Below the pieces are notes generated by a model. It had not been told where the DNA came from. It made no database searches and saw nothing but the letters and a program-made list of their open reading frames with translations. From Bifidobacterium longum subsp. longum JCM 1217 (GTDB lineage Bacteria > Actinomycetota > Actinomycetes > Actinomycetales > Bifidobacteriaceae), in the NCBI RefSeq assembly GCF_000196555.1, contig NC_015067.1, positions 1,050,001-1,082,000 on the forward strand: a stretch of 32,000 nt of DNA, given 5' to 3'. This document shows positions 4,176-32,000 of the stretch, piece by piece; the first letter of the stretch is position 1, and each line of letters starts with the position of its first letter. The translations under genes and the position numbers were made by a program.

Positions 4176-4198
4176 CGGCGCCTCTTGCGTGTAAATGG

Positions 4199-6372: not shown

Positions 6373-6407
6373 ATGAGAGTGAAATCAGACCCGTGGGACG
6401 CTTATAG
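6369..6407 (+). pseudogene. 12-codon stub where the AbiEii toxin gene would start
   Basis: ATG 6369 overlaps the AbiEi stop as ATGA, the usual abiEi/abiEii coupling. The frame closes after MNESEIRPVGRL. No nucleotidyltransferase ORF follows. Confidence 0.3.
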
Positions 6408-8039: not shown

Positions 8040-8061
8040 ACCGGCGCTCCGCTGCTTGGCG

Positions 8062-8727: not shown

Positions 8728-8897
8728 GGCTTAGCGCGACGAGTCAACGCGCATTAGCTGTCTGCGAACGACACCAACACCTTGTGCATAACAATGCCCC
8801 TTTGCAAAAAAACAAACTCCAATTATTGTACCAGTTCGAGCATAGAACCAGGCGCGTCACTGGGCACAACATAATCGGCCATCAATGGTTTCTCGGC

Positions 8898-9084
8898 TTC
8901 GAGGGGCTGATTTCGTCCGGTGGGGACATCTACTTGGCTTTCGAGGGGCTGCTCAAACGCCAAACCGCGAGTATAAACGGCTTTGCGGCAACGCCATTAC
9001 GCCATTGTGGAGCCTTGTCTACTCGGGCATCAGCCCCTTGAAACGGAGATAGATCTCCGGCAAGTGCCAAATCAGCCCCTCGAA
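8898..9084. repeat. about 190-bp imperfect foldback / MITE-like element
   Basis: Outer pair: TTCGAGGGGCTGATTT 8898-8913 / AAATCAGCCCCTCGAA 9069-9084. Inner pair: TTTCGAGGGGCTG..CAAACG 8939-8959 / ATCAGCCCCTTGAAACGG 9029-9046. The spacers are also partly complementary. Confidence 0.55.
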
Positions 9085-9090
9085 ATCGAG

Positions 9091-10491
9091 TTAGGCGTTG
9101 TTTTCGCGTTTGCGCTGCCGTTCGAGTGCGTAATAAGCCGCGTAGCAGCAGGCGACGAACGGGATCATGCAATACAGGGTCGAACGCTGCGTATCATCGA
9201 GCACCACGAGCACCAGCGCGCCGATGCACATCACGATGGCCAGCCACGGCAGCACCGGGAAACCGGGCGCACGATAGCCGAGCTCATCGGCGCTGTGCCC
9301 ATCCCGCGCCCATTCGCGCCGGAAACGGATATGGCACACGCATACGGAGAACCACACCACCAGCGTCGCCAAACCTGACACGGCGACCAACACCAGATAC
9401 ACGGTCGAGGCGGCGATCACGGAAGACAGCAACGCCAGCAGTGAGCCCGCCATGCTGAACAGCACGGCCCACACCGGCACACCACGGAAATTCGTCCTAG
9501 CAAAACGTTCGGGAATCAGCCGCTCCTTGGCCAGCGACCACACCATGCGCGAACACACGTACAGGCCGGAGTTCGCGGCGGAAAGCACGGCCGTCAACAC
9601 CACGAAGTTCATGATGTCGCCGGCGAACGGCATACCGATTGACTGGAACACCAGCACGAACGGGCTCGTATCCACGCCGGCCTGATGCCAGGGGATCAAG
9701 GCCGCCATCACCAGAATCGAGCCGATGAAGAAAATCGCCAGGCGCAGCACCGTGGTGTGCACGGCCTTGGGAATCGCACGCGAGGGATCCTTGGTTTCGC
9801 CGGCCGCCACGCCCACCACTTCGGTGCCGGAGAACGCGAACACCACGGTCAGCAAAGTCGAGAAAATCGGCGCGATGCCGCTCGGGAACCAGCCGCCGGC
9901 CACGAAGTTGCCCAGCAACGGCGCGGAATCATGACCGGCAATCGGTATGGCGCCGAAGATCGCCAGCAGGCCGATCACAATGAACGCGATGATGGCGAAC
10001 ACCTTGATTGACGCGAACCAGAATTCCGCCTCGCCGTACAGCCGCACGGACATGATGTTGAGCGCGAACACCACCACAATGAACACGGCCGACCACACCC
10101 AGGACGGCGAATGCGGGAACCATCGCTGCATCAACAGCCCTGCGGCCGTGAATTCGGAGGCGAGCGCCACCACCCAGTTCAGCCAATACAGGATGGCGAT
10201 GGTGAACGCGGTGCCGGGGCCGATGAACCGCTTCGCATACATGTGGAAGCTGCCGGCGTACGGCATGGCCACGGACAGCTCGCCCAACGACACCATCACG
10301 CAGTAGACGAGCAGGGAGCCGGCCGCGTAAGCGAGGATCGCGCCCAACGGTCCCGCCTGATGAATCGCGTAGCCGGAGCTGACGAACAGGCCGGTGCCGA
10401 TCACGCCGCCCAGGGAGATCATCGTCAGGTGACGCGACTCCATCTTCCGTTCAAGGCCGGTATCGTCCTTGGGTGTGCCGGCTGCCGCCAT
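9091..10491 (-). CDS. APC-superfamily amino acid permease (LysP/AroP-like)
   Basis: Start set at ATG 10491, preceded by GGAG. The product carries the permease signature (RHLTMISLGGVIGTGLFVSSG ... GELSVAMPYAGSF ... GEAEFWFASIKV) and 12 TM helices. The track's 110-codon N-terminal extension overlaps the divergent nfo start and is rejected. Confidence 0.9.
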   Translation of the reverse strand: MAAAGTPKDDTGLERKMESRHLTMISLGGVIGTGLFVSSGYAIHQAGPLGAILAYAAGSLLVYCVMVSLGELSVAMPYAGSFHMYAKRFIGPGTAFTIAILYWLNWVVALASEFTAAGLLMQRWFPHSPSWVWSAVFIVVVFALNIMSVRLYGEAEFWFASIKVFAIIAFIVIGLLAIFGAIPIAGHDSAPLLGNFVAGGWFPSGIAPIFSTLLTVVFAFSGTEVVGVAAGETKDPSRAIPKAVHTTVLRLAIFFIGSILVMAALIPWHQAGVDTSPFVLVFQSIGMPFAGDIMNFVVLTAVLSAANSGLYVCSRMVWSLAKERLIPERFARTNFRGVPVWAVLFSMAGSLLALLSSVIAASTVYLVLVAVSGLATLVVWFSVCVCHIRFRREWARDGHSADELGYRAPGFPVLPWLAIVMCIGALVLVVLDDTQRSTLYCMIPFVACCYAAYYALERQRKRENNA

Positions 10492-10614
10492 GCTCGGGTC
10501 TCCTTTGGTCGGGTGAACAGTTGTGTCTCGTGTCGGTTGTGCGGGCGGCGCTCGATGCCGCCTACCATATGATAGCGGTAACACGAACAGCGAGTGGAAC
10601 ACGAGGAGTTTGGA

Positions 10615-11469
10615 ATGATGGAACTGTATATCGGATCGCATCTGTCGACGGCCGGCGGATGGAATGCGCTGCTGGAACGTTCCCATGAGGAGGGCGGTAC
10701 CGCGTTCGCGTTCTTCCCGCGTTCCCCGTACGGCAAGCGTTCGAAGGCGCTCGACCCGGCCGGCGCGGCGGCGTTCGGTGCGCGTCTGAAGGCTGAGGGC
10801 TATGGGCCGTTGGTCGTCCATGCGCCGTACGTCTACAATCTAGCCGGCAAGGATGAGGCCAAGCGCACATTCGCGATCGAGGCGTTGGCCGAGGACATCG
10901 AGCTGCTGACCGCCATCCGCGAGGCCGGCCAGGAGGTGTATATCAATATTCATCCCGGCGCGCATGTGGGCCAAGGCACCGAGACCGGCTGCCGGCTGAT
11001 CAGCGAGGGACTGAATCAGGTGTTCGAGCGTACGACCGGCGTCATGGTGCTTCTGGAGACCATGGCCGGCAAAGGCACGGAATGCGGGCGCAACTTCGAG
11101 GAGCTCGCCACGATCATGAACGGCGTGGAGAACAAGGCGAACGTCGGCGTCACGTTCGACACCTGCCATGTGTTGGATGCCGGCTACGATTTGGTGCACG
11201 ACTACGACGGTGTGATGCGCCAGTTGGATGAGGCGATCGGCTTGGCCGAGGTCAAGGCGATTCACGTGAACGATTCGCAGTTTGGCCTCGGCTCGCATAA
11301 GGATCGTCACGCCAACATCGGGCAGGGTCAGCTCGGCATCCCGTTCTTCACGCGACTGGTCAACGACCCGATCATGGCCAAGCTCCCGATGATCCTCGAA
11401 ACCAAGGAGCAGACGCCCGCCACGCATCGCGACGAGATCGAGTTGTTGCGCGGATTGGTGCAAAAGTAG
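10615..11469 (+). CDS. nfo: deoxyribonuclease IV (endonuclease IV)
   Basis: MELYIGSHLSTAGG start after GGAG. Has the AP-endonuclease-2 metal-binding pattern (HAPY ... NIHPG ... LETMAG ... FDTCH ... HVNDS). Confidence 0.9.
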   Translation: MMELYIGSHLSTAGGWNALLERSHEEGGTAFAFFPRSPYGKRSKALDPAGAAAFGARLKAEGYGPLVVHAPYVYNLAGKDEAKRTFAIEALAEDIELLTAIREAGQEVYINIHPGAHVGQGTETGCRLISEGLNQVFERTTGVMVLLETMAGKGTECGRNFEELATIMNGVENKANVGVTFDTCHVLDAGYDLVHDYDGVMRQLDEAIGLAEVKAIHVNDSQFGLGSHKDRHANIGQGQLGIPFFTRLVNDPIMAKLPMILETKEQTPATHRDEIELLRGLVQK

Positions 11470-20410: not shown

Positions 20411-21232
20411 ATGGCACGTAAAGCACAATCAGACAACATGCTGGAGAAAATGCGCGACCAGCATGTACAAGACAAGGTCAACGACCGGATGGAAACCGGG
20501 TCGTTTCCCACGGTGCGTAAGAAGCCCCGGAAGGATCTCAACCGTGCCAGCAACAAATCACGGTTACTATCCTCGATTCTCATCGCTCTGATGTGCGCGT
20601 TGTTGGGTTTCGCCTACATGAGCCAGATCAATAACACTAAATCCACGTACGAAACGATGGACGAGAGTGAACTGGTAAGGCTGCTGAACGAGTCGAATAC
20701 GCAAATCTCCAATCTCGAGCAGCGTAAAACCCAGTTGAACAGCCAGCTCAACTCGCTGAAATCGGCGGCTAACGAGCAGGAGCAGGCGCGTAAGATCGCC
20801 AAGCAAAACGAGGAGACCAGCGGCTTGATCTCCGGCAGACTCCCGGCAAAGGGTCAAGGCGTGACCATCCGAATCGGACGAGGCTTGACGACTAAAGTGG
20901 ACGCCTCAATCATGTTCAACCTTATCGAGGAACTTCGCAATGCCGGTGCCGAGGTAATCGCCATCAATAACGTGCGCGTCATCACCTCCACCTACATTCA
21001 GGACGCCGAGGAAGGTTTGATTGTGGATGGCACCACCATCAAGCCCACATACACGGTGAAGGCCATTGGCAATCCGCAGGAACTGTCCAACGCAGTCGAT
21101 ATCGCCGGCGGTGTGGGCGCTCAGCTCCAGGTGAAATACGGGTCCAACGTCAATGTACAGCCTTCTGACAGCATCATTATCGACGAAGTACGCGAAGCTA
21201 CGCAAAACCAGTATGCAAAGACGGTAGAATAG
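20411..21232 (+). CDS. DUF881 domain-containing membrane protein
   Basis: 273-aa ORF with a TM helix, a coiled coil, and a DUF881-like C-terminus (GQGVTIRI ... MFNLIEELRNAGAEVIAINNVRV ... YTVKAIGN). Confidence 0.85.
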   Translation: MARKAQSDNMLEKMRDQHVQDKVNDRMETGSFPTVRKKPRKDLNRASNKSRLLSSILIALMCALLGFAYMSQINNTKSTYETMDESELVRLLNESNTQISNLEQRKTQLNSQLNSLKSAANEQEQARKIAKQNEETSGLISGRLPAKGQGVTIRIGRGLTTKVDASIMFNLIEELRNAGAEVIAINNVRVITSTYIQDAEEGLIVDGTTIKPTYTVKAIGNPQELSNAVDIAGGVGAQLQVKYGSNVNVQPSDSIIIDEVREATQNQYAKTVE

Positions 21233-21238
21233 GGGATT

Positions 21239-21682
21239 ATGACCAACCCGATTCCTAGCGCAGGCGAAACCACCATTATCGGCCTGCCCGCGATTAATGT
21301 ACTGCCCATTACCACCACCGGCGATCGACCGCTGACTCAAGAGGATCTGGACACCATCACCAGATTGTCCGAGGGAACGGCATTGCTGATTTCCGCCAGG
21401 GGAGCGGTCTCAGGTTCTCGTTACTTGCTTGACGAGGATGAAATCACCGTCGGCCGTGATCCGCGAGCTGATATTCTGCTCGACGACTCCACCGTATCCC
21501 GTCAGCATGCCGTGTTCCGCAGGGTCAACGGTCAGTTCTTTGTGGTTGACGCAGGAAGTCTGAACGGCACCTACGTGAACCGTCAGCGTGTTGATCAGGC
21601 GCCGCTGAAGAACGGCGACGAAATCATGATCGGTAAATTCCGTCTCGTGTTCTTCACGAAATCCGCCATTATTTCCCAATAG
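21239..21682 (+). CDS. FHA domain protein (OdhI/GarA-like)
   Basis: 147-aa ORF. Its N-terminal region has ETT and TTT candidate phospho-acceptor sites. The C-terminal FHA core is present (ITVGRDPRADILLDDSTVSRQHAVF ... GSLNGTYVN ... MIGKFRLVF). Confidence 0.9.
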   Translation: MTNPIPSAGETTIIGLPAINVLPITTTGDRPLTQEDLDTITRLSEGTALLISARGAVSGSRYLLDEDEITVGRDPRADILLDDSTVSRQHAVFRRVNGQFFVVDAGSLNGTYVNRQRVDQAPLKNGDEIMIGKFRLVFFTKSAIISQ

Positions 21683-21782
21683 TCCACACCCAGCACGGGG
21701 TTAGACTGATTGCAGAAATTGCAATCATGTGATTACACCAGTGTGAGTCACATGCGAGACACGCATGAGTTAGGGGAGTGCC

Positions 21783-22415
21783 ATGGGACAGACCGGGCTG
21801 CATCTTCATGTTTCGCTTGAGGACCGTCAGAATCTGAACGCTGACGCGATTCAGGGGGAGTTGTTCTCCAACGTCGATACTGAGGAGATCAAGCGCGGCT
21901 ACCGTGGCACTGTGGCCTCCAAGGTGGCCGGCATCACGTACCGACAGCTCGATTATTGGGCACGCAAGCAGATTGTTGAGCCGTCCATCACGCCGTCTCA
22001 TGGCTCCGGTTCACGACGACTATACTCGTTTAAGGATGTGGTGATTCTCGCTGTATCCAAGAAGTTGCTTGATGCCGGTGTGAATCTGCAGAACGTGACG
22101 GCGGCCATCGGATTCTTGACTCAACGCAGCACCGATCAGCTGGCCAATGTGACCATCATGTGCGATGGTCAAAACGTACATGAATGCACAACCAGCGAAC
22201 AGATGCTCGAACTGTTGCAAAGCGGTAAGGCAGTGTTCGCCGTGTCGGTGGGTTCGTTGTGGCACCAGATTGAGACGGCCTTGGAACAGGAAGAATATGT
22301 TGATCTTGAGGCCAAGCCGCTGACGATTGCCACGGGCCGTCCGATTGATGAACTGACCGCCATGAGGATGCGCAAGAAGCTCGAGGCACAGCGCTTGCGA
22401 CGCGCAACCGCCTGA
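21783..22415 (+). CDS. MerR family transcriptional regulator (FtsR-like position)
   Basis: GGGGAG SD. MerR HTH is present (YRGTVASKVAGITYRQLDYWARKQIVEPS ... GSGSRRLYSFKDVVIL). It follows the FHA gene, as in the conserved cluster. Confidence 0.85.
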   Translation: MGQTGLHLHVSLEDRQNLNADAIQGELFSNVDTEEIKRGYRGTVASKVAGITYRQLDYWARKQIVEPSITPSHGSGSRRLYSFKDVVILAVSKKLLDAGVNLQNVTAAIGFLTQRSTDQLANVTIMCDGQNVHECTTSEQMLELLQSGKAVFAVSVGSLWHQIETALEQEEYVDLEAKPLTIATGRPIDELTAMRMRKKLEAQRLRRATA

Positions 22416-22432
22416 TACATGTATGGTTGTTG

Positions 22433-22470
22433 GCGACTTGCCGGCTTTGGTCGGCAGGTCGCTTTGTTGT
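22433..22470 (+). terminator. Rho-independent terminator after the MerR gene
   Basis: An 11-bp stem with one G-U pair (GCGACTTGCCG 22433-22443 / CGGCAGGTCGC 22452-22462), an 8-nt loop, then TTTGTTGT. Confidence 0.6.
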
Positions 22471-22546
22471 ATGTGTTGCTTTTATTGCCTGCCATCTTAT
22501 GTTTTTTATATGTTGCGGTGATTATTATGACTGATTGGAGGATCGG

Positions 22547-22951
22547 GTGAACGGGATTGTTGTCGGATTGTTGCCGGGCGTTCTGTGGATGGTCGCCGTC
22601 ATCTTTGCTGTGTCCATCATCACTATAACGGTCAGCCGAGGCCATCTGTTCACGCCGAGACGCCGGCGACCGCCGGTCGATCCGGTCGACTGGTCGATGG
22701 TGAAAACGCATTTCATGTCGTTTGCGGCGGCGCTGATTCCGTTTCCCGTGTTGACGTTCACCGCAGATCTGATGGATGCTCGCATGCTCGCGTTCTACGA
22801 CCACGCGCAATTGCCCGGAGCAATCATCATATTCGTGCTGGTGCTGCTGGAACTCATCGCCATGTATCTGCAGGCACGCAACGCCTCAGAAACCGAAATG
22901 GATAGGCGTTTAGGTGTTGCTTCTCACCGGAATAAAGATGATATTGAATAA
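22547..22951 (+). CDS. hypothetical membrane protein
   Basis: GTG 22547 lies 4 nt after GGAGGA. The product has about 3 TM helices (VNGIVVGLLPGVLWMVAVIFAVSIITI ...). It sits in an AT-richer stretch between the core cluster and the integrase. Confidence 0.5.
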   Translation: MNGIVVGLLPGVLWMVAVIFAVSIITITVSRGHLFTPRRRRPPVDPVDWSMVKTHFMSFAAALIPFPVLTFTADLMDARMLAFYDHAQLPGAIIIFVLVLLELIAMYLQARNASETEMDRRLGVASHRNKDDIE

Positions 22952-23105
22952 CCGATAATGTACGTTATGTCAGATTAGGTTTTCGGAAGAAACCGGGAAG
23001 TGGCCAAAATCAGCGGAAAACGGCGGGATAACGCCGTTCTTCGTGCGCGCGTCATGGAAGGACGGCACTCCCGTTTACGGCTATATCCGGCTATTTTCGG
23101 CTGGA

Positions 23106-23127
23106 ATAGGCACACGATAGGCACACG
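23106..23127 (+). repeat. tandem 11-bp repeat upstream of int (candidate arm-type integrase site)
   Basis: ATAGGCACACG occurs at 23106-23116 and again at 23117-23127. A related GTACACGCAC follows at 23132. Confidence 0.5.
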
Positions 23128-23212
23128 TTCGGTACACGCACCACGCCGACCGGACCGGGCCGATACGCATACCGGGGGTTGTCATCACACGACGAACCCG
23201 GAAGGCGACGAC

Positions 23213-24418
23213 ATGGCGGACACAGGCGGACACGCGACAAGACGAGACAAGGGAGCCGGCGCGATCACGAAACTCGGCAACGGCAGATACCGGGCGTTCG
23301 TCGAACTCTCCCCCAACCCGGCCGACGGCTCCAGACGACGCACCAGCGCCACCGGCCACACCCGGACCGAAGCCCTGAACAACGCCCGCGCCAAAGCCCG
23401 CCGCATCGAGGAGGACATCACCCTGGTGGACGAACCGCCCACCGTGAACGAATGGATGCGACGCTGGATCGACGAGATCGTGACCCCCAGACGCGCACCC
23501 AACACGACCCGGTCATACCGGTTCCGCATCGAACACGACATTACCCCCGTCATCGGCGCCGTACGCATGGACAGGCTCAAACCCGCCCACATACGCCTCG
23601 TCGAACGCCACTGCCTCGAAGGAAACCCCGCGAAAGGCATCCAGGGCAAATCCCCCGCCACGGCCGCCCTGACCCACACCGTCCTGTCCGAGGCATGCAA
23701 GGCCGCCGTCGCCGAAGGCATCATCCGCAGCAACCCCGTGGACGCGGTCGAGAAGAACCGGGTGCCGCCCGCCCCAATCGCCACCCTCACCCCCGGACAG
23801 GCCGCCATGCTCATCCACGCCGAAACCGACCCGCGATGGAGCATCATCTGGCGGCTCCTGTTCATCACCGCACTGCGCGAAGGCGAAGCCCTGGGCGTCA
23901 CGCGCAACGAGATCGTCCGCTCCGACGGACTACCCTGCCTGCTCGTCGAATGGCAGCTCAAGGAATTCGACGGCATCACGGACATGCCCGCCGGCTTCGA
24001 GGCCCGCCGGCTCGACGGCCGCACATGGCTCACCAGACCCAAGACCAGATCCGGACGCCGGCTCATCCCCCTGCCCGCCGACCTCGCCGCCGACCTCGCC
24101 GCCTATACGGCCGACCATCCCGACATCGACCCGGACACCCCATTGTTCCGCTCCGGCCGAGGCAACCCCATCCGCAAGGAAACACTCCAGAACGCATGGC
24201 GAAAAGCGTTGGAACGGGTGGGACTGCCCCGCGTGCGCGTCCACTCCGCACGCCACACGGCGGCCACCGCCATGGCGCGCATCGGCGTCTCCGACCTCGC
24301 CCGCCGTGCCATCATCGGCCACGCCGACATCGGCACCACGGACGCCATCTACACGCACGTGGACGCCGACATGCTCGCCGGCGCCATCGACGGCGTGGAA
24401 CGCCTCATCGAAGGATAG
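23213..24418 (+). CDS. int: tyrosine-type site-specific integrase
   Basis: ATG 23213 follows GGAAGG. The N-terminal arm-binding-like segment is present (ITKLGNGRYRAFVELSP...RRRTSATGHTRTEA). The C-terminal catalytic residues are present (ALREGEAL ... HSARHTAATAM ... IIGHADIGTTDAIYTHV). Confidence 0.9.
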   Translation: MADTGGHATRRDKGAGAITKLGNGRYRAFVELSPNPADGSRRRTSATGHTRTEALNNARAKARRIEEDITLVDEPPTVNEWMRRWIDEIVTPRRAPNTTRSYRFRIEHDITPVIGAVRMDRLKPAHIRLVERHCLEGNPAKGIQGKSPATAALTHTVLSEACKAAVAEGIIRSNPVDAVEKNRVPPAPIATLTPGQAAMLIHAETDPRWSIIWRLLFITALREGEALGVTRNEIVRSDGLPCLLVEWQLKEFDGITDMPAGFEARRLDGRTWLTRPKTRSGRRLIPLPADLAADLAAYTADHPDIDPDTPLFRSGRGNPIRKETLQNAWRKALERVGLPRVRVHSARHTAATAMARIGVSDLARRAIIGHADIGTTDAIYTHVDADMLAGAIDGVERLIEG

Positions 24419-24493
24419 TCAGTCGATCACCGCGAGATCGACGAGCCCGTCGCCCGTGGACACGGCCGCGCCCCCAGTGGTCGATTACGACAA

Positions 24494-24841
24494 TCACTCC
24501 GCGTAATACGCGGCCGGATTGTTCTGCAGGTCAATACGCCGCCATGCTTTGACCAGTTCGACGGTAGGCGCGTACCGTTCGATGGCCGACCGGCTACCGT
24601 CGTACCGTCCGGCCATATCATTGTCAAAAGAGATAACAGTGTCTGCCATGATATGACGCGCTTCCTTTGCCGTAATGGCCTCGCGATGCCAATTACCGTC
24701 AAAAACGTCGTCGGCAACCCAAGCGTCACGTTCCGCCATCGAGTCAAACACGTAGAGATTGCCCGGCCATGACCCGTCATTCCATGTCGTGCCGATACCG
24801 TAGGTCCAAGAAAAAGTGTAATAATAGCGAGTTTTAAACAT
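24494..24841 (-). CDS. hypothetical phage protein (115 aa)
   Basis: ATG 24841 lies 8 nt after GAGGAG (MFKTRYYYTFSWTYGIGTTWNDGSW...). It converges on int. The track start at 24889 is rejected. Confidence 0.6.
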   Translation of the reverse strand: MFKTRYYYTFSWTYGIGTTWNDGSWPGNLYVFDSMAERDAWVADDVFDGNWHREAITAKEARHIMADTVISFDNDMAGRYDGSRSAIERYAPTVELVKAWRRIDLQNNPAAYYAE

Positions 24842-24885
24842 GATGCACACTCCTCGTATCGTCCCGATATCATCGACACGGGCAT

Positions 24886-24900
24886 GCATGCGTCCCCGGC
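24886..24900 (-). promoter_or_regulatory. recurrent junction motif, class A copy (GCCGGGGACGCATGC on the minus strand)
   Basis: 15-mer identical to 30510-30524. It lies 4 nt after the methyltransferase stop. Its CCGGGGACG part pairs with 24916-24924, forming a 9-bp GC hairpin across the stop codon. Confidence 0.5.
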
Positions 24901-24904
24901 GATG

Positions 24905-26137
24905 TCAGAACAGCACCGGGGACGTCGGCCTCGCCATCCGGCGGGCGATGAGCCGCACGTAATCCGAATCCATCTCCGCCGCCACGCAACGCATGTTTTC
25001 GACCCGGCACGCCTCCAACGTGGCGCCGCTGCCGGCGAACGGCTCCAACACGAGCCCGTCCGGCGGCGTGACCAGACGCACCAGCCAGCGCATCAGCTCC
25101 AACGGTTTCACCGTCGGATGGCGGATCCCGTCCACCGTCGGCCTCTCCCCCGGTCCCGCCTTCGGACAATACCGGAACACGGGATAGAAGCGGGATGCGC
25201 CGCCCATATCGTCATATTCGGCACCCGTATGGGTCATGCCCCAGCCGTCACCGGGTTTCGTGCTTGCGCGTGATTTGCCTTTTCGACTGACGGTGACGCC
25301 GGACTGCCGGTCAAGCTCTCCGGCCATGGTCCGGTCGAACAGCATGTTCGGCGCGAACCGGGCGTCCGCCTTATAGTCGGTGCGATTCGCATTATCCGCG
25401 CCGTATACATGGTTGTCCCGCGGTCCGGAACCGAACCGTCCATGCCGGTTCTTGTTCTTCGCCTCGGTCTCATCCGCCGGGTTGCGGAATGGGACGCGGC
25501 ATGCGTCGATATGCAACGCGCCCGTCCCGTGTCCGAGCAGATTGTGGGCGAGTGTCCCGTCCAACGGCTTGCGTGCGAGGCAGATGGGTTCGTGCGCGGG
25601 CTTCAGCTGGCTGTACCAGCCGGACCATTGTTCGCCCTGTTCGGTGGCGGGCGCATCCCATTCGGATTTCGCCTTGCCGCCGTTCGCGGTGCTGGAACCT
25701 CCGAAGCCGTTGGTGTCCGAATATCCTGCGCCAGCATGACCTTTACCGGCCACATGGGTGCGTTCCGCACCCAATTCCCTGTCCACGAGCAGTCTCGCAT
25801 CCGAACCGTGTGGCATGCCGCTTGCGTACACCCAGTCGATCTGGTCGCGGATTTCGAAGCCCGCGTCCTCGATCGCGCAGGCGAGCCGATGATATGTGCG
25901 GCTCGCGCCGAACGCGGCCACATGCCCGCCCGGCTTCAGGACGCGCAGAATGTCCTTCCACAGGATCACGTCGAATGCGATGCCCGTCGAATCGAAGCCC
26001 AGGTTCATGAAACCGATCTCGTACGGCGGGTCGGTGACGACGGAAGCCACGCTGTTGTCCGGCAGCATGGCGATGAGGTCGCGGCAATCCCCCGGCATCA
26101 GACGGATGCGGCCGTCATCCCATCGCATAAGACTCAT
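24905..26137 (-). CDS. site-specific DNA methyltransferase, N4/N6 family, beta-class motif order
   Basis: 410-aa ORF. The DPPY catalytic motif is near the N-terminus (VVTDPPYEIG). The AdoMet motif is near the C-terminus (HPTVKPLELMRWLVRLVTPPDGLVLEPFAGSGAT). No restriction endonuclease candidate is adjacent. Confidence 0.9.
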   Translation of the reverse strand: MSLMRWDDGRIRLMPGDCRDLIAMLPDNSVASVVTDPPYEIGFMNLGFDSTGIAFDVILWKDILRVLKPGGHVAAFGASRTYHRLACAIEDAGFEIRDQIDWVYASGMPHGSDARLLVDRELGAERTHVAGKGHAGAGYSDTNGFGGSSTANGGKAKSEWDAPATEQGEQWSGWYSQLKPAHEPICLARKPLDGTLAHNLLGHGTGALHIDACRVPFRNPADETEAKNKNRHGRFGSGPRDNHVYGADNANRTDYKADARFAPNMLFDRTMAGELDRQSGVTVSRKGKSRASTKPGDGWGMTHTGAEYDDMGGASRFYPVFRYCPKAGPGERPTVDGIRHPTVKPLELMRWLVRLVTPPDGLVLEPFAGSGATLEACRVENMRCVAAEMDSDYVRLIARRMARPTSPVLF

Positions 26138-26415
26138 GGCTTCACGTATGCGTTCCCGCCATGCAGGCGCGCGCCGGGCATGAGCGCGCGGGGACGCGCA
26201 TCCACGTAGGCGAGCCGACGGCTGTCGCCCGGATAGGTGCGCACGTTGCCGCCCCCATCCCGGGTCTCATAATAGACGACCGTCACCGGCCGGCCGTTCA
26301 GGCTCGCATCATCCCAGCCGACCACCCTGACCGGCATGCTCCCCGGCCCGTAGCCGCCCGACAGGAGAAGCCTGGCGAGCAGCCTCTCCTCCATATCGCG
26401 TCTCGAAACAACCAT
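26134..26415 (-). CDS. hypothetical phage protein (93 aa)
   Basis: Its stop overlaps the methyltransferase ATG (ATGA at 26134-26137), which suggests translational coupling. No family recognised. Confidence 0.55.
   Translation of the reverse strand: MVVSRRDMEERLLARLLLSGGYGPGSMPVRVVGWDDASLNGRPVTVVYYETRDGGGNVRTYPGDSRRLAYVDARPRALMPGARLHGGNAYVKP
26146..26157 (-). promoter_or_regulatory. recurrent junction motif, class B copy (GGGAACGCATAC)
   Basis: Ends 8 nt upstream of the methyltransferase ATG (26137). No canonical SD is present there. Confidence 0.45.
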
Positions 26416-26423
26416 GGGAACCG

Positions 26424-26435
26424 GTATGCGTCACC
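26424..26435 (-). promoter_or_regulatory. recurrent junction motif, class B copy (GGTGACGCATAC)
   Basis: Ends 8 nt upstream of ATG 26415. No canonical SD is present there. Confidence 0.45.
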
Positions 26436-26442
26436 CGACACC

Positions 26443-26488
26443 ATGCAAATCCGGAGGGCCCATGCAATTCTTGTTCCATATGCAATTC
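26443..26488 (-). repeat. three phased direct repeats ATGCAAWTC (plus-strand reading)
   Basis: Copies at 26443-26451, 26462-26470 and 26480-26488, spaced 19 and 18 bp. They lie in the only sizeable AT-richer intergenic gap of the element (26416-26512). Confidence 0.6.
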
Positions 26489-26571
26489 CGAACCCGTTTC
26501 TTAATGTCCGGATCACGTCGCAAGCCGTTGTTCCGGCATGGGAACAGGGCGCGGGCTTCGATGGTCGTATG

Positions 26572-26664
26572 TCATGGCCTGCCGCTGATGTCGAGCGTCG
26601 CCATCGTATCGGCGTCCTCGCCGTCCGTGATATATACTCCGATGATGTATTTTCTTCCGGCCAT
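26572..26664 (-). CDS. possible 30-aa micro-ORF
   Basis: ATG 26664 overlaps the upstream stop as ATGA (MAGRKYIIGVYITDGEDADTMATLDISGRP). Its own stop overlaps another ATG (26575) that opens a 20-codon ORF. Support is positional only. Confidence 0.2.
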   Translation of the reverse strand: MAGRKYIIGVYITDGEDADTMATLDISGRP

Positions 26665-27479
26665 CACGTCCCCCAGCCGACCGGGATGTCCGCGCTTTTC
26701 GCCGTCTCCAACAGGAGCCGGAACAGCTGGATGGTATCTTCCTTGCCTTCCATGGGGTCGAACCGGATGCCGTCATTCTCCGCCATGGCGGTCTCCAACA
26801 TGGAAGCCACCTGACTGTCCGCGCCGACGAACGCGAACCCGGAACCGGCTTCCACCCACTCCCGGCGGCCCACGTCCCACCGCAGGTTCAGATACCGGCC
26901 GAATCCACGATGCATGTCCGCGCCGATCCACACGGAACGGCAGCAGTCCAGGAACTCGGATGACGTGACATCCACGCTCAACCCCGATTCGACCGAACCG
27001 GACACGAACGGGATGCGAGCCGCCAGCATGGCGGCCAACGGTCTTAACCATTTCGCATCACCGCCGGACGCGATACGCTCCCCATCCACGATGGATTCGG
27101 CGATATGTCCGAACGCCTCCACGATGGCCGTGGAATCGTCGGCGCCGGAGGGAATGTCCCCTTCGCCGGTCATGCGGGACACGCCGTCCGGGTCGAACTC
27201 CCAATCGTATTCGACTGGATTGTTACAGGTCTTTGTTACAGGTTTCGTCATTGGTTTCCACGATGATGCGGTGAACCTCCCCGACCTTACGGTCGGGGCT
27301 TCCGTGCCTTCCGCAGAGTTCAATCGGGCAATGGTGAATTCGTAGGCTGTGGTGAGGCCGTCGTAGAAAGTGTATTTTTCCAACAGTTCCTTGTCCGGGG
27401 TTTCGGAGTCTTTGACGGCCTTGTCCCATTGTTGTTCCAACCATGCTATGAGGTCGGATTTAAGTTCTGACTGATTCAT
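26664..27479 (-). CDS. hypothetical phage protein (271 aa)
   Basis: ATG 27479 follows AAGGAA (MNQSELKSDLIAWLEQQWDK...). No family recognised. Confidence 0.65.
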   Translation of the reverse strand: MNQSELKSDLIAWLEQQWDKAVKDSETPDKELLEKYTFYDGLTTAYEFTIARLNSAEGTEAPTVRSGRFTASSWKPMTKPVTKTCNNPVEYDWEFDPDGVSRMTGEGDIPSGADDSTAIVEAFGHIAESIVDGERIASGGDAKWLRPLAAMLAARIPFVSGSVESGLSVDVTSSEFLDCCRSVWIGADMHRGFGRYLNLRWDVGRREWVEAGSGFAFVGADSQVASMLETAMAENDGIRFDPMEGKEDTIQLFRLLLETAKSADIPVGWGT

Positions 27480-27517
27480 GTGGGGGTTCCTTGTTGTGGA
27501 TGCTTTTATGTGTGGAC

Positions 27518-27550
27518 GCAACCAATGTCCATGAGTTCTGTGAGGTTCAA
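27518..27550. repeat. direct repeat, copy A (truncated duplicate of the 5' end of the 67-aa gene)
   Basis: The 29-nt core at 27522-27550 is identical to 27751-27779. Similarity extends to about 45-50 bp with mismatches. On the minus strand it reads TTG AAC CTC ACA GAA CTC ATG GAC ATT GGT TGC GTC CAC ACA TAA. Confidence 0.8.
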
Positions 27551-27578
27551 ATGGTTCAATCCTTGTTTCCTTTCTGCC

Positions 27579-27782
27579 TTACTGCGGAACGTTTTCTAAC
27601 GGCACGAGTTCGGCGCCGGCCTGTTTGGCGTGCCGCTGGCAGACGCCGCCGAAGCTTTCCCCGTCGCCCTCCGGCCATCGACGGATTGCCACAATGGGTT
27701 TGCCGCACGGGTACATCCAACCGTCCGAATCGGTCACGGTATGGGCGCAGCCAATGTCCATGAGTTCTGTGAGGTTCAACAT
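27579..27782 (-). CDS. hypothetical phage protein (67 aa)
   Basis: ATG 27782 follows GGAAAGGA (MLNLTELMDIGCAHTVTDSDGWMYPCGKP...). Confidence 0.55.
   Translation of the reverse strand: MLNLTELMDIGCAHTVTDSDGWMYPCGKPIVAIRRWPEGDGESFGGVCQRHAKQAGAELVPLENVPQ
27747..27779. repeat. direct repeat, copy B (the first 11 codons of the 67-aa gene, including the start codon)
   Basis: See copy A. The two copies are 229 bp apart. Confidence 0.8.
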
Positions 27783-27876
27783 GATTCATCCTTTCCAAAG
27801 TTGAATGCTCTGCCATAGTTTGAATCGCTCGGCTATTGCCTTCGGAGATTGCCCAAACGCATTCTCATCGTCCTCT

Positions 27877-28146
27877 CTACCTTTCCCCGCAATCCCAACG
27901 GTCGTAGCATGCGGGGCATTCGTATTGCGCGTATTCGGGATTCCACTTGGCGTGCTCACGGCATACCAGACGCCAGCAGGCCTCACATATCTCGCCGCAG
28001 TCCGTGCAGTTGACGCGCCCGCAACAGGGGCATTTCCTCGCATGCTCCTCACATAACGGTATGCCGCAACCGCCGCAGTGGTCAGCCACGTCATCCGACT
28101 CGTACGGGCCGTGGATTGAATCTTCGCAGGTTTCGTTCGCGTTCAT
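27877..28146 (-). CDS. cysteine-rich small protein (putative multi-zinc-binding)
   Basis: 89 aa with 15 Cys arranged largely as CxxC pairs, plus C..H (HCGGC, LCEEH, CPCC, CTDC, CEAC, VCREH, CPAC). Confidence 0.6.
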   Translation of the reverse strand: MNANETCEDSIHGPYESDDVADHCGGCGIPLCEEHARKCPCCGRVNCTDCGEICEACWRLVCREHAKWNPEYAQYECPACYDRWDCGER

Positions 28147-28158
28147 GATGGTTCCTTT

Positions 28159-28350
28159 TCATTCCTTGCCTAACAGGTCAAGTCCGGCGCACACCGTCTC
28201 CCATACGGTCTTGCCGTCGAATGCGATGAGCATGCCGGATATGCAGTATTCGCTGGCGTGCGGCGCGGGCTGTCCGCAGTCCACGCCTTCCTTGCCCAGC
28301 CTGTCCAATAGGTCGCGGACGGATTGCAGCGTCTTCTCGATGTTCAACAT
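28159..28350 (-). CDS. hypothetical phage protein (63 aa)
   Basis: ATG 28350 follows AAGGAG. It lies 3 nt downstream of the preceding gene's stop. Confidence 0.5.
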   Translation of the reverse strand: MLNIEKTLQSVRDLLDRLGKEGVDCGQPAPHASEYCISGMLIAFDGKTVWETVCAGLDLLGKE

Positions 28351-28353
28351 GGT

Positions 28354-28899
28354 TCACTCCTTGTCCAGTCGGCGCACGCTGGCCAGCATGCGCGACGCGG
28401 CCTGACGGCGCGTCTCATACGGGGTGCCGAGTTCCTCGCCCAGCAGCCACCCCTCGAACACGGACACCGGGTCATGTCGGCCGGAGTATTTGTTGTTGCA
28501 GGATTCGCACACATGCATGTAGTGTTCGGCCATGTCTTCCACATCCTTCGCCTCCTGTTCGTCGCCAAGCGTGTTCCGGCACCATTCGGCGGTCCTGTCG
28601 AACTTGTCTTTCAACCGCATGAGACGGTCGGTGCGCGGCATGGGCGAAGCCAGCAGGCGTGCCAGTTCGTCCAATGCCCGTTCCTCGCCCATGTCGGCTG
28701 TATCGAGGACGGTGTTATCCTCGACAAGCTCGTACTGCGTGCGGACGATGCTGATGGTGTCGCTGTCGGGAAGGTTGACGGTGACCTCGTATCCCGCTTG
28801 AGGGTCGAATGCGGTGATGCGTCCGAACTGGTGGTCGTTGTACACATGCCAGTCCGGCAGTATGCGGGTGACGATGCTGAGGATGTCGCGTGTTTTCAT
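28354..28899 (-). CDS. hypothetical phage protein (181 aa)
   Basis: Internal Met of track ORF 28354..28959 (MKTRDILSIVTRILPDWHVYNDHQF...). The SD is weak. No family recognised. Confidence 0.55.
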   Translation of the reverse strand: MKTRDILSIVTRILPDWHVYNDHQFGRITAFDPQAGYEVTVNLPDSDTISIVRTQYELVEDNTVLDTADMGEERALDELARLLASPMPRTDRLMRLKDKFDRTAEWCRNTLGDEQEAKDVEDMAEHYMHVCESCNNKYSGRHDPVSVFEGWLLGEELGTPYETRRQAASRMLASVRRLDKE

Positions 28900-28966
28900 T
28901 CCGTCAGTTCCAGTTCTTCGGCGCGACGACGATCCAGCCGCGATGCCTGTCGGCCTCACGCCTCTC

Positions 28967-29068
28967 CTATTCGTCCGTTAGCCATTGCTCATGCGTTTCC
29001 GCTTCCTGCCTGTCATCGAACTGCTTGCCATCCGAAGTGGTGTATGCGATGCTTGTTTCGACACTCAT
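28967..29068 (-). CDS. possible 33-aa micro-ORF
   Basis: ATG 29068 overlaps the upstream stop as ATGA (MSVETSIAYTTSDGKQFDDRQEAETHEQWLTDE). Below the track cut-off. Confidence 0.25.
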   Translation of the reverse strand: MSVETSIAYTTSDGKQFDDRQEAETHEQWLTDE

Positions 29069-29610
29069 GATTCCTCCAACTGGTATCCGATGTGGCGCAG
29101 CGCGTCCGTGATGGTTTCGCCCGGTTCGCCTTCAAGCGGTCGCCCGCCATACTTGTCGTATATCCGCCATTCGCCGGGTTCGGACTGGTAGGCGTATACG
29201 GTGCCCGCCGGCTTCCCGTCCGGCGCCGTCAGTTCGATCGGCTTCGATTCGCCCCGCTCCGACCGCCATCGTGCGATGCCGTGCTTGCGTTCCATGAGCG
29301 TTAGGCTCGCGCCGTCCAGTCCGGCTTCCAGCAGGCTCATATATTGGCTGTCATCGTTTTCGCGGATATGCCAGTCATCGCCGTAGTCGTCCTCCATGCC
29401 GATCAGGAGCAGGGGCAGGCCGGTGCGACCGCGCCCCTCGTCGCGCACGATTTCGAACGGACGGTCCAACTCGTTGAACGCGGTCTGCCAGACGATCCAA
29501 CCCTTGTCGCTGACGCGCGGCGAATCCGGGCCATACCCGTCGTCCTGCCGGTCACCATAATGGAATCTGTCGAGCAATTGGTGTTCGATTTTTTCGCCAA
29601 GCGGCTTCAT
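29065..29610 (-). CDS. hypothetical phage protein (181 aa)
   Basis: ATG 29610 follows AAAGGAA (MKPLGEKIEHQLLDRFHYGDRQDDGYG...). The track start (TTG 29655) is rejected. Confidence 0.6.
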   Translation of the reverse strand: MKPLGEKIEHQLLDRFHYGDRQDDGYGPDSPRVSDKGWIVWQTAFNELDRPFEIVRDEGRGRTGLPLLLIGMEDDYGDDWHIRENDDSQYMSLLEAGLDGASLTLMERKHGIARWRSERGESKPIELTAPDGKPAGTVYAYQSEPGEWRIYDKYGGRPLEGEPGETITDALRHIGYQLEES

Positions 29611-29845
29611 GGTCAGGTTCCTTTCTTTCGAAAAGCGTGGTTGTCGCATCCTCAAGAAATGCGGTGAACAGATCGTAGGGTTCGGCCTGATTGGGATTCA
29701 GATACCAGTCCATAGGTTTATAGCCCAGTTTCATGCACGGGAGTTTCGTGCCGATATACCGGGTGACCCGGATATGCCGGAATACCCATCGTATGATGTC
29801 GATTCCGAGCCCATATTGTTCCGCATATTCCTTATACGACTTCAC
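29552..29845 (-). CDS. hypothetical phage protein (97 aa)
   Basis: GTG 29845 lies 6 nt after GGAAAGGG (VKSYKEYAEQYGLGIDIIRWVF...). Its 3' end overlaps the next gene by 59 nt in another frame. Confidence 0.45.
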   Translation of the reverse strand: MKSYKEYAEQYGLGIDIIRWVFRHIRVTRYIGTKLPCMKLGYKPMDWYLNPNQAEPYDLFTAFLEDATTTLFERKEPDHEAAWRKNRTPIARQIPLW

Positions 29846-29865
29846 AATCGACCCTTTCCTCCGCT

Positions 29866-30195
29866 TCACTGGTGCGCCTTCACGTATTCGGGTCCGTGGT
29901 AGTGCGATCGGCATGCGTATCGTTCGGTGACCGGGGTTTCGAGAATCCGGTCCACATCCAACGTCACGGTCTCCCGATCCGTTCGGGCGAGGTATTCACG
30001 CAGCCAGTCGCCAGCGTTGAAACTGTCCGCACACCATGCCGGATCGTCCGTCAGCTCTTGGATGCGCCGGACGCCGTTCGGGTCGTCGAGGAGCCCGGGG
30101 TTCCAGCCTGCATGCTCGCAGACCACGTCGATCAGCGGGTCAAGCCGGCTGATGGCGCGTGTTCTGCCGGGCGTGACGATCACCGTGCTCCTCAT
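29866..30195 (-). CDS. hypothetical phage protein (109 aa)
   Basis: Track ORF, same strand as its neighbours, starting 3 nt after the upstream stop. Confidence 0.55.
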   Translation of the reverse strand: MRSTVIVTPGRTRAISRLDPLIDVVCEHAGWNPGLLDDPNGVRRIQELTDDPAWCADSFNAGDWLREYLARTDRETVTLDVDRILETPVTERYACRSHYHGPEYVKAHQ

Positions 30196-30198
30196 CGT

Positions 30199-30477
30199 TC
30201 AGTCCTTCTTCTCTTCGAGATCCTTGAACATGTCCCATCCACCGCGTCCGATATCGGCGTCTTTGCTGCCGATTACGACGATGCCGCCGCCTTTCTTGAG
30301 CCGCCGCGTGCAGACTGGGTCCGTGTTCTCCTTGCCGTAAATGTCGAAGCTCTTGAGCGGGATCGCCCGCAAACCGTATTCGTAATCGTCGTTGATGCGG
30401 TACACGGGCAGGTCGCCGTACCGGTCGCGGATGGCTTCGAGCTTCTCGATGAGTTCGGTGATGGTCAACGTGTCCAT
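30199..30477 (-). CDS. hypothetical phage protein (92 aa)
   Basis: Track ORF (MDTLTITELIEKLEAIRDRYGDLPVY...) with a balanced charged composition. Confidence 0.6.
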   Translation of the reverse strand: MDTLTITELIEKLEAIRDRYGDLPVYRINDDYEYGLRAIPLKSFDIYGKENTDPVCTRRLKKGGGIVVIGSKDADIGRGGWDMFKDLEEKKD

Positions 30478-30509
30478 GGTCGGATGCCTTTCTTACGTCC
30501 GCATCCCAC

Positions 30510-30524
30510 GCATGCGTCCCCGGC
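30510..30524 (-). promoter_or_regulatory. recurrent junction motif, class A copy (GCCGGGGACGCATGC)
   Basis: Identical 15-mer to 24886-24900. It abuts the stop codon at 30525-30527 and overlaps the perfect palindrome ACGCATGCGT (30508-30517). Confidence 0.5.
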
Positions 30525-31013
30525 TCACAGGCCCTTCGCCTTGAGGATCCCGTCCGCCTCTCTGGTGAAGTCATGCCGGCGGCGCAGCCGTCCCGCCTCG
30601 TAGCGCGCATCACGCGCCGTCGGGTCGATGTCGCGCGCGAATCCGGCCATCACATCCGGGTCGATGCGGTGCGCGTATCGGAGCGCGATATACGGGTCGG
30701 CCGTCCGGACGAGAGCGTGTTCGCCGCCCGGATGCTTCTCGCACGCGATCAGCCATGTGCCCGGATCGTCGCACCAGCCGATGAGGCGTTCCAACTGGCC
30801 GGGCGTGCACTCCTGGCTGGCGATCAGCTGGTAGGCGACGTCCGGCGACCATGACGGGTTCGACTCCTCCATGAGCCGGACGAGCATGCCGATCTGTTCG
30901 GGACGCAGTCTCGCGCTCGCGGCCAGATCCGTCATGACGCCGTCCCCGTGCTCGAACAGGGCGAGCAGCTGGGGTCCGTCCAGGGTGGCTATGAAATCGT
31001 CGAATCGTTTCAT
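30525..31013 (-). CDS. hypothetical protein downstream of the HipA-like kinase (162 aa)
   Basis: Internal Met of track ORF 30525..31073 (MKRFDDFIATLDGPQLLALFEHGDG...). Helical-repeat-like composition. It starts 37 nt after the kinase stop. Confidence 0.55.
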   Translation of the reverse strand: MKRFDDFIATLDGPQLLALFEHGDGVMTDLAASARLRPEQIGMLVRLMEESNPSWSPDVAYQLIASQECTPGQLERLIGWCDDPGTWLIACEKHPGGEHALVRTADPYIALRYAHRIDPDVMAGFARDIDPTARDARYEAGRLRRRHDFTREADGILKAKGL

Positions 31014-31020
31014 GCCCTGG

Positions 31021-31032
31021 GTATGCGTCCCC
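31021..31032 (-). promoter_or_regulatory. recurrent junction motif, class B copy (GGGGACGCATAC)
   Basis: Ends 7 nt upstream of ATG 31013, in the 37-nt gap after the kinase stop. Confidence 0.45.
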
Positions 31033-31050
31033 CTAATCAGGGAAACGGGG

Positions 31051-32000
31051 TCAGCGGCTACGCCAGTATCCACTGACCGGATATCCGCTTCGGATATGAG
31101 GGCTCACCCAGACGCCGCCCCCGCCGAAGGATGCCGTATTCGCCTTTGGCTTCGGCATCCTTCCGTGCAGTGGCTGGATGTTCTCGTTTGCCTTCGAAAC
31201 CGCCTTACGCATGGATTCCCTCAGCGAATCGGGCAAACCGGCCGATGCCTCATCCAGATGGTCGAGAACGGCTCCCGCCATGGTCCGGGCGATATGCGCC
31301 ACACGCTCCCCGTCCAAACCGGCCTCCTCCGCGAAGGCCTCCCAGTCGGATGGGGTGAGCAGTTCCGCGAATTCGACTCCGTTGATGGGCATCGCCATCT
31401 CCTGATCCACATGAGGCCATATTCTGGTGACCGTCATGTCGTACATCGGCGCGAAACGGAACCCGTTTTCGGCAAGAACAATCGAATAGTTCTTGCCATG
31501 GGAGTCCGAATCGCCCGATGAGACGTTGAAGGCAAGCCGGCGAACCCACTCGTATCCGGTTTCATCGCTTGCATCGAAATGATGCAGGAAACGGACGCAG
31601 CTTGCGGCGTCGATTTCATACTTGGATTCGGGATCCATGCCCATGGCCTGCGCTAGATCCTCGCAATGGATTCGTCTCACGTTGTTTCCATCCACGATGC
31701 GGTCGAAACGTCGGGTGATGAAGGCCTCCGTCCCATTCGCGGTGAGAACGCCATGCTCGGATACCGGCAATCCGCAAAGAGTCCCGAGCGTCAGGGTGGC
31801 ATCCTCCACCCTGTGACTGCCGGGGCAATCCCTCATTTCAGGTTTGATGATATGGGTGGAGGGGATGGACGCGTTGGGCCAGAGCCAGACACCGGCACGT
31901 CGGGCGAGCGTGAACTTGGGCTGGCCTCCGGCGATGGAGAAACGGCATTTCGGCGTATCCCGCTCATAGAACTCATCCTCATCATCCCGTGCGAACCAGT
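31051..32000 (-). CDS. HipA-family serine/threonine kinase (type II toxin-like), N-terminus beyond the window
   Basis: The frame is open from 31998 down to the stop at 31051. The track's Met at 31836 is internal. Motifs: RFSIAGGQPKF (Gly-rich loop), PSTHIIKPE, FITRRFDR, RIHCEDLAQAMG, the catalytic region FNVSSGDSDSHGKNYS, and PMYD. Confidence 0.85.
   Translation of the reverse strand, partial: WFARDDEDEFYERDTPKCRFSIAGGQPKFTLARRAGVWLWPNASIPSTHIIKPEMRDCPGSHRVEDATLTLGTLCGLPVSEHGVLTANGTEAFITRRFDRIVDGNNVRRIHCEDLAQAMGMDPESKYEIDAASCVRFLHHFDASDETGYEWVRRLAFNVSSGDSDSHGKNYSIVLAENGFRFAPMYDMTVTRIWPHVDQEMAMPINGVEFAELLTPSDWEAFAEEAGLDGERVAHIARTMAGAVLDHLDEASAGLPDSLRESMRKAVSKANENIQPLHGRMPKPKANTASFGGGGVWVSPHIRSGYPVSGYWRSR

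Follow-up and report, generated by a model that had tools for sequence, protein, structure and literature searches.

A predicted hipBA toxin-antitoxin operon with a distinctive C-terminal tail on a strain-variable island of Bifidobacterium longum

The 32,000-nucleotide stretch of the Bifidobacterium longum subsp. longum JCM 1217 genome analysed here (NC_015067.1, positions 1,050,001 to 1,082,000; hereafter, the window) ends inside hipA, a gene for a HipA-family kinase carried by an integrase-bounded island. The hipA frame enters the window at position 32000, on the minus strand, and ends with a TGA stop codon at 31051-31053, the N-terminal 131 residues lying beyond the window end. The full-length gene, encoding 446 amino acids (aa), occupies positions 8623-9963 of a locus in the complete genome record CP137052.1 (locus L088), which is 100% identical to window positions 20525-32000, and the exact protein is present on 259 contigs. 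Within the window, neither a sigma-70-like promoter nor a convincing terminator was found around hipA.

The assignment of this protein to the HipA family, made in an initial annotation from the nucleotide sequence, is borne out by several lines of evidence. The Pfam domain HipA_C matches residues 20-246 of the 315-residue fragment encoded in the window (E=2.2e-44, 152 bits against a cut-off of 30.5), and the Couple_hipA domain (N-subdomain 1) is recognized with E=1.7e-15 in the closest database relative (P0001; 446 aa, 97% identity, Couple_hipA followed by HipA_C) and is recorded also for the exact 446-aa gene of L088. The fragment further matches solved HipA and HipT chains in the PDB at about 1e-15. 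The four motifs singled out in the same annotation, SIAGGQPK, STHIIKP, DSDSHGKN and MYD, are all present, and the phmmer alignment to E. coli HipA, from which the residue equivalences in Table 1 were taken, reveals no substitution at the catalytic positions; in full-length numbering, the columns S152, K183, D296, H298, N301 and D318 are invariant across an alignment of 14 relatives. The activation-loop region is covered by the E. coli alignment. The AlphaFold model, built on 68 sequences, has a predicted local distance difference test score (pLDDT) of 90.9, and in a Foldseek comparison, it superimposes on E. coli and Shewanella HipA with template modelling (TM) scores of 0.74-0.76 (0.75 for E. 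coli; E=4e-27). As judged from its sequence, then, the kinase is intact and full-length, its activity being predicted.

A HipB-like helix-turn-helix (HTH) gene, which the initial annotation had proposed to look for beyond position 32000, lies directly upstream of hipA. In L088, a 100-aa gene with its own AAGGAG ribosome-binding site ends in ATGA and thereby overlaps the hipA start by 4 nucleotides (nt); the exact protein is BLLJ_0891 of B. longum JCM 1217, named in UniRef as an HTH cro/C1-type domain protein. An upstream open reading frame (ORF) of 98-100 aa overlaps hipA in the same manner at every locus examined that encodes a HipA with the C-terminal tail described below, namely, those of the relatives with 57% and 35% identity and that on a Mycolicibacterium plasmid. 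A profile of four of these upstream proteins matches Xre-family HTH structures with E-values down to 1.3e-5, including HigA (3e-5) and several HipB proteins (0.014-0.46). An upstream HTH gene overlapping the toxin gene is the classical hipBA layout of clades I-VIII of the Hip tree (PMC8262856). We also looked for a HipB operator, and the region upstream of hipB contains weak inverted repeats of 9-10 nt, on which no claim can be based.

The C-terminus of HipA presents a less familiar facet of the locus. The alignment with E. coli HipA extends only as far as fragment residue 283, paired with chain residue 435 of 440, and hence the last ~32 residues of the B. longum protein are truly extra; the extension of about 40 aa postulated in the initial annotation is thus real and of approximately the right length. 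It consists of a poorly conserved linker, flanked on both sides by conserved sequence, and a conserved terminal module, hereafter, the tail. The tail contains 4 basic and 4 aromatic residues, with 0 acidic ones, and is predicted by AlphaFold to form four three-residue beta strands (residues 427-429, 432-434, 437-439 and 442-444; pLDDT 81-89). Its counterparts read AVWVSPHTRNGYDVRGYWRSR in the 57% relative, MVHVRSHTRDGRTVVDYWRRRPTR in the 44% relative, MVHVVSHDRDGHPVHDYWRRKPSR in a megaplasmid HipA with 35% identity and IPVVGHSRGGHPITAHRRHRP in the HipA of an M. fortuitum plasmid, and the consensus is G-x-V-W-V-x-(P/G)-(H/Y)-x-R-x-G-x-x-V-x-G-(Y/H)-W-R, a basic and aromatic beta-meander. In species-representative genomes, no HipA exceeds 44% identity to the window protein, and the tail is absent from all of the ~58 that were checked, including the relatives at 43-44% identity. 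It is nevertheless present on HipAs that are merely 22-36% identical to the window HipA or to each other, a distribution that implies repeated gain or loss of the tail.

Five database ORFs of 79-92 aa (P0107-P0111) are chimeras or fragments of the megaplasmid HipA C-terminus. Four of these ORFs, each of 85 aa, combine an N-terminal peptide (…AKGTEAPTVRSGRFTA…) with the final ~60 residues of the megaplasmid HipA, tail included, and a near-identical peptide, AEGTEAPTVRSGRFTA, occurs in a 285-aa ORF of the window (26664-27521, minus strand). These junctions suggest, at the level of sequence, recombination between island-type and plasmid-type sequences that left remnants of the HipA C-terminus behind.

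The tail is by no means confined to HipA. A word-indexed search of a 5.8-billion protein set recovered only six fragments or chimeras, 79-92 aa long, of the megaplasmid HipA C-terminus and was too insensitive, so that an exhaustive search was needed; a profile of 15 tails was therefore run with hmmsearch against 1.84 billion cluster representatives. It yielded 199 proteins at E<=1e-3, 14 of them at E<=1e-10, with the number of motif copies per protein reaching 12-13. HipAs are not among the strongest matches, which include a protein of 4972 aa in which 13 stretches match (E=4e-49), one of 1890 aa in which 6 do, others of 2214 and 754 aa, and numerous small proteins. In a local re-scan with a 23-column core, covering 147 of the listed matches, a copy lies within 12 residues of the C-terminus in 95 proteins, an N-terminal copy is found in 14, and 58 contain two or more. 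The general consensus of the carriers is G-r-v-W-V-k-P/G-Y/H-x-R-x-D/N-G-t-x-V-x-G-Y/H-W-R.

No Pfam family is common to the 145 carriers that were scanned. The domains encountered are HipA_C (13 proteins), AbiEii (11), Couple_hipA (8), Zeta_toxin, SNase and AAA_33 (3 each), Pkinase, ArdC-N, MPTase-PolyVal, LPD1 and DUF6036 (2 each), and ddrB-ParB and NUDIX (1 each). The position of the motif varies with its company: it is C-terminal on AbiEii-type nucleotidyltransferases, occurs as repeats that follow SNase domains or lie in signal-peptide proteins, and is both N-terminal and located between domains in the giant multidomain proteins. Searched by itself, the tail has no match in Pfam, nine carriers have no relevant NCBIfam match (none below E=0.02), and two profile searches against PDB sequences recovered nothing significant. 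Within the portions of the literature accessible to us, including a keyword scan of a paper on polyvalent proteins, no description of the motif was found, and queries with motif strings returned only unrelated peptides. This lack of a match or a description is absence of evidence rather than proof that the motif is unnamed.

Table 1. Coordinates of the hipA features and of the surrounding island features within the window
Feature	Position	Strand	Remarks
hipA, 3' part (950 nt)	31051..32000	-	C-terminal 315 of 446 residues and stop codon; Pfam HipA_C
Gly-rich (P-) loop SIAGGQPK	31915..31938	-	Ser aligns with the E. coli HipA autophosphorylation site S150
STHIIKP	31840..31860	-	Lys aligns with the ATP-binding K181 of E. 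coli HipA
Catalytic motif DSDSHGKN	31489..31512	-	D, H and N align with E. coli D309, H311 and N314
Mg-binding motif MYD	31438..31446	-	Asp aligns with E. coli D332
Variable linker QPLHGRMPKPKANTASFGG	31120..31176	-	Separates the last HipA helix from the tail
C-terminal mini-module (tail) GGVWVSPHIRSGYPVSGYWRSR	31054..31119	-	22 residues; conserved in relatives down to ~22-36% identity
ORF of 162 aa	30525..31013	-	37 nt downstream of the hipA stop codon
Block of small unannotated ORFs	26679..29614	-	87-95% nucleotide identity to pMP7017-family Bifidobacterium megaplasmids
N6/N4 DNA methyltransferase	24905..26137	-	Pfam; restriction gene not adjacent
Tyrosine recombinase/integrase	23000..24418	+	Pfam Phage_integrase and Phage_int_SAM_3; longest ORF from 23000, 401-aa call from 23213
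Putative att core, 20 bp, TGTACGTTATGTCAGATTAG	22959..22978	+	Ends at the left island junction

The genomic context implies that hipA is cargo of a mobile element, as the initial annotation had proposed: a tyrosine recombinase gene is located beside the left end of the island. Window positions 1-22951 belong to the core Bifidobacterium chromosome (trpC/B, trpA, lgt, rpe, hisG, pgsA, DUF881 and merR-like genes), and the left end of the island can be placed at 22978/22979, because the sequence of an island-free strain (L105) matches the window exactly as far as 22978, beyond which other chromosomal genes follow. The putative attachment (att) core that ends at this junction has a second copy at the far junction in a related contig, IMGVR_UViG_2687453622_000001, directly before the same right-hand chromosomal flank; the two copies are ~167 kb apart on this 186.7-kb contig. 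Since a second integrase fragment, along with a sortase gene, lies to the left of the proximal copy, the array on this contig may be composite, and the TGTACGTTATGTCAGATTAG site may be an integration hot spot that holds very large or tandem elements.

All the island genes in the window, except for the integrase, are on the minus strand. The block of small ORFs matches six Bifidobacterium plasmid records, and its megaplasmid counterpart is a long array of small hypothetical genes that adjoins a protein with an LPD28 domain. Directly upstream of hipBA, L088 contains a cluster of defence and toxin-antitoxin (TA) genes (1023-8159), which encompasses a 932-aa MmeI-like type IIG restriction-modification enzyme (PADLOC, 1167 bits), a TacA antitoxin with a GNAT toxin on the opposite strand, an AbiLi-like AAA_21 ATPase (E=2.4e-27) with a 183-aa partner, and two small ORFs; farther upstream, related elements encode TnpB, RNase_T, YafQ, SocA-Panacea, ParE and an R2K ATP-grasp protein. 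In a relative (L001), a 116-aa ORF (6447-6797) is located between the restriction enzyme gene and hipB; in L088, it is deleted (8160-8230), and only its last ~30 nt are left. No conjugation genes (an FtsK/SpoIIIE-type translocase, a relaxase or a type IV secretion system) were detected in the parts of the island that were read, and on the one IMG/VR contig with a complete att-to-att element, the megaplasmid FtsK gene has no close relative. By gene content, the element is an integrase-bounded, strain-variable island that is rich in TA and defence genes and shares modules with megaplasmids.

Against this background, we consider it fairly probable (roughly 0.72) that the gene is the predicted toxin gene of a canonical type II hipBA operon, residing on a strain-variable, integrase-bounded B. 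longum island and distinguished by its tail. By sequence and predicted fold, the B. longum protein is a long HipA proper, partnered by HipB, and agrees with such proteins in every respect that could be tested. The E. coli K-12 HipBA system (HipA of clade I; PDB 3DNT, 3FBR and 2WIU) has the same Couple_hipA and HipA_C architecture, the same Gly-loop Ser, ATP-binding Lys, D-x-H-x-x-N motif and Mg-binding Asp within a closely similar predicted fold, and the same gene order, with an upstream Xre-HTH gene overlapping the toxin gene. The two HipA proteins are only ~25-27% identical, however, and E. coli HipA lacks both the ~10-residue extra linker and the 22-residue tail of the B. longum protein.

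By analogy with the characterized systems, the operation of such a module can be outlined. Free HipA, as extrapolated from the E. coli, Caulobacter and Shewanella proteins, would phosphorylate an aminoacyl-tRNA synthetase and so halt translation, whereas HipB would bind both HipA and the operator, providing for neutralization of the toxin and autoregulation of the operon. The known HipA targets are GltX in E. coli and TrpS, LysS and GltX in Caulobacter, and complexes of HipB, HipA and operator have been described (PMC8262856). Cells that lose the island, or whose gene expression a phage or another agent shuts down, would then be arrested, so that the module would contribute to element maintenance and, possibly, to abortive infection. 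The likely pay-off for the element, in our analysis, is maintenance by post-segregational arrest, as has been proposed for the hipBA pair of the megaplasmid pMP7017.

Several observations weigh against this interpretation. The HipB-like protein matches Pfam HTH models only weakly (E=0.03-0.18), has no counterpart of the C-terminal Trp used by E. coli HipB, and differs from the latter also by a ~35-residue N-terminal extension. As for the tail, its function is deduced purely from its composition and its company, and because the carriers with signal peptides put the module outside the cytoplasm, tRNA binding cannot be its general role.

What, then, might the tail do? Our best guess, offered as inference only, is that it acts as a nucleic-acid or polyanion tether for the catalytic domain, for instance, to synthetase-bound tRNA or to DNA. 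The tether is proposed because the tail is basic and aromatic, without acidic residues, and because of the company that it keeps: nucleases, DNA-binding proteins, toxins linked to tRNA, and secreted proteins. Specifically, the carriers include nucleases, the ssDNA-binding ArdC-N domain and ParB-like domains, and multiple copies of the motif occur in secreted proteins with the potential to bind polymers outside the cell. The described substrates of AbiEii/MenT-type nucleotidyltransferases and of HipA are tRNA or tRNA-bound enzymes, and it is toxins of this kind that the tail accompanies. Alternatively, the tail might mediate oligomerization, dock to a host factor shared by its carriers, mark proteins for delivery or serve in regulation. 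More broadly, we tentatively suggest, with somewhat less than even confidence, that the tail is an undescribed, dispersed, portable mini-module that mobile elements have attached repeatedly and independently to toxins that differ in mechanism (AbiEii and DUF6036 nucleotidyltransferases, Zeta kinases, and HipA kinases from three or more deeply separated lineages), to nucleases and, between domains, to polyvalent proteins, conferring on them all a common property, conceivably nucleic-acid or host-factor tethering, that determines where or when the toxin acts.

Other explanations of the locus have to be weighed against that of a resident TA operon that maintains the island. The most substantial of these is that hipBA is primarily an anti-phage module of the abortive-infection or exclusion type, as the initial annotation had suggested: infection would deplete HipB, or liberate HipA in another way, and HipA would then arrest translation before phages are released. 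Such a role is possible because the neighbours of hipBA are defence genes, the type IIG restriction enzyme, the AbiLi-like ATPase and the TacAT pair; moreover, HipA matches the PADLOC candidate system PDC-M03A (E=5.5e-5 and 1.1e-4), and comparable roles have been proposed for other Hip families (PMC8262856). The PADLOC matches are weak, though, and pertain to a candidate rather than a validated system, and the closest described homologue, that of pMP7017, adjoins repA and has been interpreted as a post-segregational killing module. We therefore regard defence as the primary role as rather unlikely, with the proviso that abortive infection and element maintenance do not exclude each other. The notion that the element is a prophage, with HipA as a phage moron, is considerably less plausible. 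It draws on the tyrosine integrase at the boundary, the unidirectional string of small ORFs, one 92-aa ORF that matches an uncharacterized PHROG, and the fact that contigs containing the hipA locus are catalogued as viral in IMG/VR. Scans of window positions 22979-32000, of 8.6 kb more of L088 and of ~21 kb of related elements nevertheless found no structural, packaging or lysis genes of phages, and in particular, no terminase, portal, capsid or tail family was detected in ~30 kb around hipA here and in the related elements. Eight of the 10 element ORFs have no PHROG match, the methyltransferase alone is matched by phage genomes, and the small ORFs are close to megaplasmid sequences, so the phage-like character that the initial annotation ascribed to the element is not supported. 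The viral label in IMG/VR is unreliable in this case, because the FtsK/SpoIIIE gene of the megaplasmids is present, at 99% identity, on several of these contigs; the IMG/VR contigs of L096, L097, L098, L101 and L113-L116 look like pMP7017-type megaplasmids misfiled as viruses.

Two further proposals concern the parts of the locus that flank or extend the kinase domain. That HipA is co-transferred with the element DNA, or packaged, and acts in the recipient cell, with the tail serving as the delivery or packaging tag, would fit the way in which the motif punctuates giant multidomain proteins (12-13 copies in 4972 aa and 6 in 1890 aa) and its occurrence together with ArdC-N, MPTase-PolyVal, LPD1 and ddrB-ParB, domains typical of transferred polyvalent proteins; furthermore, those tail-bearing HipAs for which a replicon or element can be identified are all on plasmids or on this island, as opposed to the tail-less species-representative relatives. 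Yet all of these loci have the layout of a resident TA system, with the cognate hipB gene overlapping hipA, the motif occurs also in signal-peptide proteins and in nucleases of the secreted type, and no transfer machinery was found near the locus, so that we consider delivery a decidedly unlikely function of the tail. Least probable of all is a three-gene system in which the 162-aa product of the downstream gene is a HipS-like or other partner. The initial annotation had raised this possibility, and the gene is indeed located as it had described, on the same strand and at the tight spacing of 37 nt; it also accompanies hipA in close relatives, where HipA is 94-100% identical. At greater distances, the association disappears, with unrelated genes in its place beside the HipAs of 57% and 35% identity and that of the M. 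fortuitum plasmid, and the protein has no match in Pfam, PHROG or PADLOC. The idea of a downstream partner is rejected on these grounds, and because HipA already holds the N-subdomain that HipS supplies in HipBST systems.

Among the described systems, the closest to the B. longum operon is hipBA of a pMP7017-family megaplasmid (NZ_CP084013.1, WP_225090377.1), which comes from the same genus, has a 98-aa upstream ORF overlapping hipA, and ends in the tail MVHVVSHDRDGHPVHDYWRRKPSR. Like the island, this plasmid is a mobile element, and its other genes encode an AtaT/TacT pair as well as a type IIL restriction system, but its HipA, 35% identical to that of the island, is located beside repA on a conjugative plasmid as opposed to an integrated island. 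The pMP7017 hipBA has been reported as a transcribed TA pair with predicted post-segregational killing (PMC10832533), and a 2025 review names HipB/HipA only for B. dentium and pMP7017, as uncharacterized (PMC12724246); the tail is mentioned in neither of these papers. With respect to the tail, a partial parallel is provided by HipL and HipN (Gerdes et al. 2021), where a Hip kinase or antitoxin likewise carries a C-terminal module, HIRAN, proposed to bind nucleic acid; the notion of a nucleic-acid sensor linked to a Hip kinase is common to both. HIRAN, however, comprises ~100 aa and folds as a domain, and N-subdomain 1 is missing from HipL, whereas here, a 22-residue motif is appended to a full-length HipA with a normal HipB; Pfam scans of the B. 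longum HipA produced no HIRAN match. The PBCV-specific basic adaptor domain, SHOCT and DUF4236 are very short basic modules, terminal or repeated, on unrelated catalytic domains of viruses and plasmids. Their likeness to the tail is conceptual only, and the tail has no match in Pfam-A or NCBIfam.

The hipBA module as such is routine, given that HipA-domain genes are already automatically annotated in B. longum and the hipAB pair of pMP7017 has been reported, and the value of the locus is mainly that of a TA or defence candidate in an important gut commensal. To a specialist, only the tail would come as a surprise. If the reading of a shared short module is true, the tail would offer a new handle on the targeting or regulation of mobile-element effectors, and such effectors could be sought, in practice, by using it as a sequence tag.

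Some minor features of the window deserve mention. A GGGGACGCAT(G/A)C-type string occurs just upstream of three gene starts (24883-24900, 30507-30524 and 31021-31042, in the sense of the minus strand), including that of the 162-aa gene; it is probably what the initial annotation called a junction motif, and could be a shared ribosome-binding or regulatory element. A 55-nt direct repeat is present within the small-ORF block in two copies (27510-27564 and 27739-27793), 84% identical and 229 nt apart, apparently upstream of small genes. In the chromosomal part of the window, the longest ORF of an amino-acid permease gene (9091-10821, minus strand) overlaps an AP_endonuc_2/xylose-isomerase-like ORF (10594-11469, plus strand) by ~230 nt, and because the Pfam match of the permease starts only at residue 131, its true start is probably further downstream. 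Finally, positions 1-7000 have a lower G+C content (0.51-0.56) and encode an Abi_2 protein, which resembles abortive-infection proteins, and a GNAT acetyltransferase, with the ORFs at 1966-2772 (plus strand) and 4556-5125 (minus strand) standing out; this part may thus represent another variable or defence segment, with no relation to the island.

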